Below are positions 63,342 to 63,359 of a DNA stretch of 64,000 nucleotides, piece after piece; within the stretch, counting starts at the first letter, position 1, and every line of letters begins with the position of its first letter. The position numbers were made by a program, and so were the translations under genes. The notes beneath the pieces were generated by a model. The model searched no databases and had not been told where the DNA came from. It was given only the letters and a program-made list of their open reading frames with translations. Source of the DNA: Escherichia coli (GTDB lineage Bacteria > Pseudomonadota > Gammaproteobacteria > Enterobacterales > Enterobacteriaceae). The stretch lies in the NCBI RefSeq assembly GCF_003790525.1, contig NZ_CP033635.1; one strand, 5' to 3'.

Positions 63342-63359
63342 TTCTTACAACTGTAGGCA
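63342..63359. promoter_or_regulatory. Candidate EvgA box upstream of safA-ydeO
   Basis: ttcttaca-ac-tgtaggca, a near-palindromic match to the EvgA inverted-repeat site, about 110 bp upstream of the safA ATG. Confidence 0.5.

Follow-up and report, generated by a model that had tools for sequence, protein, structure and literature searches.

A probable EvgA operator in the ydeP-safA intergenic region of Escherichia coli, with acid-resistance wiring that resembles that of K-12

Is the short inverted repeat that lies between ydeP and safA the site through which EvgA would switch on the safA-ydeO operon, and does the strain that carries it keep the acid-resistance relay of K-12? These questions arise from a 64,000-nt stretch of E. 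coli DNA (contig NZ_CP033635.1, assembly GCF_003790525.1; hereafter, the window), in which a preliminary description had proposed an EvgA-type site about 110 bp upstream of safA, with one mismatch to the EvgA site class. Direct reading of the sequence recovers the letters it quoted (ttcttaca, ac, and tgtaggca) at exactly the positions claimed for the 2 arms and the spacer (Table 1), in the ydeP-safA intergenic region. The 18-mer reads TTCTTACA-AC-TGTAGGCA on the plus strand and TGCCTACA-GT-TGTAAGAA in the orientation of the gene. The inverted repeat is present but imperfect, in that its arms can pair at 6 of 8 positions (TTCTTACA vs. TGCCTACA), and the box differs from TTCYTACANNTGTARGAA by the single mismatch announced. 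The distance is also correct, i.e. 111 nt separate the box from the A of the safA ATG at 63230.

Table 1. Features of the ydeP-safA-ydeO region, with their positions in the window, strand, and the evidence or remark attached to each
Feature	Position	Strand	Evidence or remark
ydeO, AraC-family acid-resistance activator, second gene of the operon	62197..62958	-	Pfam AraC-type HTH
safA, 65-aa connector protein activating PhoQ	63033..63230	-	Pfam SafA, E=6e-45
Predicted safA-ydeO transcription start, ~63277	63275..63279	-	Inferred from the -10 position
Predicted extended -10, TGtTATATT	63284..63292	-	Hexamer starts 53 nt after the box
Conserved element AGTCCTATT	63310..63318	-	24-32 nt downstream of the box, ~-41 to -33
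Probable EvgA box, safA-ydeO promoter	63342..63359	-	Uniqueness, rank 1 in the consensus-free comparison, conservation
Promoter-proximal half-site TGTAAGAA (gene orientation)	63342..63349	-	Perfect match to the consensus half
2-bp spacer	63350..63351	.	63350 polymorphic
Promoter-distal, weaker half-site TGCCTACA (gene orientation)	63352..63359	-	Haplotype alignment
Stable hairpin just past the ydeP stop codon	63434..63464	-	-17.5 kcal/mol, z=-5.0
ydeP	From 63478 past the window end	-	Gene calls

The layout of the element is that of an EvgA box, i.e. two 8-bp half-sites, inverted, separated by a 2-bp gap and close to the consensus. The class is said to have been defined by Masuda and Church in 2003 as an 18-bp inverted repeat with the consensus TTCYTACA-N2-TGTARGAA, and Itou and colleagues reportedly footprinted EvgA on the b1500 (safA) promoter in 2009. 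Searching the window for this consensus returns the box as the sole match, even when up to 3 mismatches are tolerated, and none of 100 dinucleotide-preserving shuffles of the window produces a match at ≤1 mismatch. With zero matches expected by chance at that threshold, the view that the repeat is accidental loses much of its appeal. At the RNA level, Rfam detects no family near the box, and a hairpin made by the repeat itself is ruled out, as its 2-nt loop is sterically impossible. Elsewhere in the window, the only Rfam family above threshold is SECIS_3, a selenocysteine insertion element on the plus strand (27599-27657; 84 bits, E=1e-18) that presumably lies inside a formate dehydrogenase selenoprotein gene.

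Comparison with known EvgA sites, as suggested in the preliminary description, shows that ydeP, frc, yfdX, yegR, and emrK/evgA are all preceded by boxes of this class. Specifically, a scan of K-12 with the above consensus (≤3 mismatches) yields TTCTTACGCCTGTAGGAT in the emrK-evgA intergenic region, TTCCTACATAAGTAGGAA upstream of yegR, 2 matches upstream of yfdX, and 1 match each upstream of ydeP and safA, while the match upstream of frc (yfdW), TTCTTACAACTGTAAGAA, is a perfect palindrome with 0 mismatches. Observed counts in the upstream DNA of the targets are higher than in all or nearly all shuffles, and the genome of E. coli SMS-3-5 (NC_010498.1), to which a 701-bp stretch around the box is a 100% match, itself carries the same boxes as the K-12 targets. 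No box is present upstream of gadE at ≤3 mismatches. Weak box-like matches are found within 2 coding sequences, those of K-12 mdtE (TTCTTACGCATGAAAGAA, 2 mismatches; L008:5887-5904) and ydeO (TTCTTGCATCTAAAAGAA, 3 mismatches; L002:2401-2418), and both are probably due to chance.

These scans of the motif class are partly circular, because the boxes of the other targets were found with the consensus itself. A comparison that makes no use of the consensus removes this circularity, since it also ranks the box first. For this, five upstream regions were used, i.e. those of ydeP, frc, yfdX, yegR, and emrK/evgA, and each 18-mer of the window received as its score the sum of its best identities to them. 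Out of ~64,000 18-mers, the one at 63342 obtains the highest score (73/90, vs. a mean of 53.6 and a standard deviation of 2.97), and the next ranks are occupied by its own neighbors, shifted by one base. This ranking likewise argues against a chance repeat.

The boxes of frc, yfdX, yegR, and emrK/evgA share with that of safA an inverted 8-N2-8 layout and a conserved YTAC/GTAR core. Some differences exist, however. For example, the frc box is a perfect palindrome, unlike the safA box, and yfdX has two boxes, whose centres are separated by 38 bp. Both yfdX boxes differ between K-12 and SMS-3-5 in their 2-bp spacers only, as would be expected if a dimer reads the half-sites and ignores the bases between them. 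In these 2 strains (K-12 L006:18501-18556 vs. SMS-3-5 L027:25306-25361), it is the weaker, proximal yfdX box that is found at the standard 54 nt from a -10-like TATGAT.

The element is also conserved in orthologous promoters, a point on which the preliminary description had made its proposal depend. The ydeP-safA intergenic region was found in 5,374 of 5,426 complete E. coli genomes, at ~90% to 100% identity to the window, and 19 distinct haplotypes were aligned, one of them from a divergent lineage (L011, YdeO 93% identical). The box core is invariant in all 19, including L011. Specifically, the promoter-proximal half-site shows no change in 19/19 haplotypes, the distal half-site retains an invariant GCCTACA core, and variation within the 18-mer is confined to the spacer base 63350 and the outermost distal base 63359, which is T or C (gene orientation) by lineage. 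The base at 63350 is A in the window and in 577 genomes, while K-12, O157, and the majority of other strains carry G. Overall, 1 of 16 half-site columns is variable, compared with 105 of 236 other intergenic columns (45%; binomial P = 0.0011). When L011 is left out, the figures are 1 of 16 vs. 43 of 236 (P = 0.18), and the statistic is then weak because E. coli strains are closely related. Using 28-30-mers that span the core and its downstream flank, the exact core is retained in 5,311 of the 5,374 genomes having the region (4,362 + 577 + 372; 98.8%), and such retention amid a variable intergenic region is again at odds with a repeat of no function. Together, the haplotypes provide a natural mutational map of the operator, in which changes are tolerated at the spacer and at the outermost base of the distal half and the core stays constant.

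A search for YdeO in one genome per species, which reaches close relatives only, identifies no orthologue outside Escherichia, and its matches consist of E. coli-like loci and a single deletion remnant. The remnant belongs to Escherichia sp. MOD1-EC7003 (L012:4961-5183), where ~3.7 kb has been deleted, with loss of the coding sequence of ydeP, of safA together with its promoter, and of ydeO except for its last ~22 codons. At the junction, a degenerated ydeP EvgA box (ATCCTACCCCCGTAAGAA) and ~35 nt are joined to the 3' end of ydeO. As such, the cryptic Escherichia lineage of MOD1-EC7003 has lost the ydeP-safA-ydeO branch of the relay. In the commensal E. coli SCU-308 (L022), ydeO is annotated as frameshifted (a pseudogene), and safA and the EvgA box are intact. 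SafA and EvgS/EvgA have been described as restricted to E. coli and Shigella (PMC9496106).

The sequence between the box and the ATG contains TATATT as its sole -10-like hexamer, with a TGn before it, and the TATATTAA stretch at this -10 region is invariant in 19/19 haplotypes. The ydeP promoter has TGtTAATTT at an offset identical to that of the safA extended -10, and in 6 promoters, i.e. those of safA, ydeP, frc, yfdX (proximal box), yegR, and emrK, the distance from the box to the start of a -10-like hexamer is 53-54 nt. A start located ~7 nt past the hexamer would give a 5' UTR of ~47 nt and would place the box centre at about -73.5. The safA promoter has no recognisable -35, and a simple sigma-70 scan detects no promoter on the safA strand, so that the assignment of the -10 and of the start derives solely from the shared offset. 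Both negative results are compatible with dependence of the promoter on an activator that acts from upstream. The presence of a full promoter layout downstream of the box, with offsets as in ydeP, also speaks against an accidental repeat.

Another conserved element, AGTCCTATT, is located between the box and the predicted -10, and the block that covers it, GTCCTATTTC, is invariant in 19/19 haplotypes. Relatives of this element are found at the same offset in ydeP (AGTCTTATT), yegR (AATCCTATT), and emrK (AGTCCTCTG), while frc and yfdX have CTCTCTGATT there instead. Within the predicted 5' UTR (+6 to +21; 63257-63272, minus strand), the region carries a direct repeat of TTAACG (TTAACG-N4-TTAACG; period, 10 bp). 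Its interval is polymorphic among strains, being TTTT, GCTT, or GATT, with a 7-nt insertion in L011, and the repeat does not match a PhoP box.

The promoters of safA and ydeP, which are 2.7 kb apart, resemble each other beyond the box. The ydeP box is of the same class (in SMS-3-5, ATCCTACA-CC-TGTAAGAA in gene orientation), and like the safA box it combines a perfect promoter-proximal half with a weaker distal half. The 2 promoters share TGTAAGAA-A(C/A)TCCGC, and when safA (63267-63359) is compared with ydeP (SMS-3-5, L001:5932-6024), the 75 nt that follow the box agree at 43 positions, vs. a mean of 24 and a maximum of 33 in 2,000 shuffles. By contrast, the boxes are unlike in their spacers and in the outer positions of the distal half, and ydeP has a much longer 5' UTR, with 248 nt from box to ATG compared with 111 in safA. 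No similarity to safA downstream of the box is detectable in frc, yfdX, yegR, or emrK/evgA, and among pairs of EvgA promoters only safA-ydeP shows it. Judging from their sequences, the promoters look paralogous from the box to the predicted start, i.e. like duplicates of one EvgA-dependent promoter. A more specific version, which we regard as speculative and rather unlikely, is that a cassette of ~95 bp was duplicated, comprising the box, an extended -10 at a constant distance from it, and between these AGTC(C/T)TATT at ~-41 to -33, with the middle element acting as a second contact for activation; such a cassette has possibly been described already. The second contact may in that case be made by a further EvgA protomer or by RNA polymerase.

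Given this arrangement, we considered how else the locus could be explained. The site might be used mainly by a regulator other than EvgA, for example RcsB or GadE, or one of the reported repressors PhoP and YdeO, although we see very little room for this. Proteins with a LuxR-type HTH do bind related short inverted repeats. A recent study of PsafA reports induction by EvgA-P, repression by PhoP-P, and feedback by YdeO, the operators of these last 2 not being located (bioRxiv 10.64898/2026.05.06.723403). However, the element is specifically common to promoters of the EvgA regulon, and its position near -73 suits an activator and not a repressor. In addition, a scan for the PhoP box (KGTTTA-N5-KGTTTA, ≤2 mismatches) reveals no such direct repeat in the safA promoter, nor an excess of them across the window.

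The hairpin that divides ydeP from the safA promoter bears on another alternative, i.e. that the repeat has no regulatory role and safA-ydeO is induced by read-through from the EvgA-dependent ydeP promoter. Its stem is 12-13 bp long, both of its strands are invariant in the 19 haplotypes, and the loop is replaced in L011. The structure lacks a T-tract, which sets it apart from canonical intrinsic terminators, and it fails a simple terminator rule. It probably forms the 3' end or acts as a partial terminator, and could either reduce read-through into safA or make the ydeP mRNA more stable. Some read-through is thus plausible, and one paper writes of a "ydeP-safA-ydeO operon" (PMC11052181), but reporters with no promoter other than that of safA respond to EvgS/EvgA (bioRxiv 10.64898/2026.05.06.723403) and a passage of PMC9496106 describes direct binding of EvgA to the safA-ydeO promoter, with physical binding in K-12 given by secondary citation, which together with the uniqueness, rank, conservation, and layout of the box makes this the least probable account of all. 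Read-through may still add to the effect of the box, without replacing it.

We thus return to EvgA, and estimate from the sequence evidence a probability of roughly 0.92 that 63342-63359 is the EvgA operator of the safA-ydeO promoter and acts as follows. Mild acid would activate EvgS, giving rise to phosphorylated EvgA, a response regulator of the NarL/FixJ family with a LuxR/GerE-type HTH. Phospho-EvgA would bind as a dimer across the 2-bp spacer, with one subunit on each 8-bp half-site, and from ~73 bp upstream of the predicted start would recruit or stabilise RNA polymerase. The extended -10 has no recognisable -35 to accompany it, so EvgA is most likely an upstream activator here. Transcription would then yield SafA, which would activate PhoQ/PhoP, and YdeO, which would activate gadE and the glutamate-dependent acid-resistance genes. 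A dimeric LuxR/GerE-type HTH acting on a short inverted repeat at an activator-dependent promoter is also the theme of the NarL, RcsB, UhpA, and BvgA operators, although these differ from the EvgA box in half-site sequence and spacing.

The proposal that the relay is wired as in K-12 is well supported at the sequence level. The operon downstream of the box has been described as a direct target of activation by EvgA (PMC9496106; bioRxiv 10.64898/2026.05.06.723403). RefSeq places ydeM, ydeN, ydeO, safA, and ydeP in this order at NC_010498.1, all on the minus strand of the window. The orthologous box of K-12 safA (b1500)-ydeO has both 8-bp half-sites identical, the same 111 nt to the ATG, and the same extended -10, and differs from the window in having G and not A at the spacer base 63350 and in a few flanking substitutions. 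EvgA of SMS-3-5, which contains the Pfam domains Response_reg and GerE (LuxR-type HTH), is identical to that of K-12 over 204/204 residues; evgA and evgS are intact, and the locus emrKY-evgAS-yfdE-yfdV-oxc-frc-yfdX is arranged as in K-12. The ydeO-safA region and its promoters (window 61600-63400) are AT-rich, with a GC content of 0.33-0.40. AT-richness is typical of horizontally acquired DNA, which tends to be silenced by H-NS.

The operator is already known, and the window carries a common natural variant of its spacer. As such, the locus adds no new biology, and its value is that of a clean positive control. It indicates that in SMS-3-5, an environmental, multidrug-resistant strain of phylogroup F, the acid-resistance relay from EvgS/EvgA to SafA/YdeO is wired as in K-12, and that nearly all of E. 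coli shares this arrangement (98.8% of the genomes that have the region).
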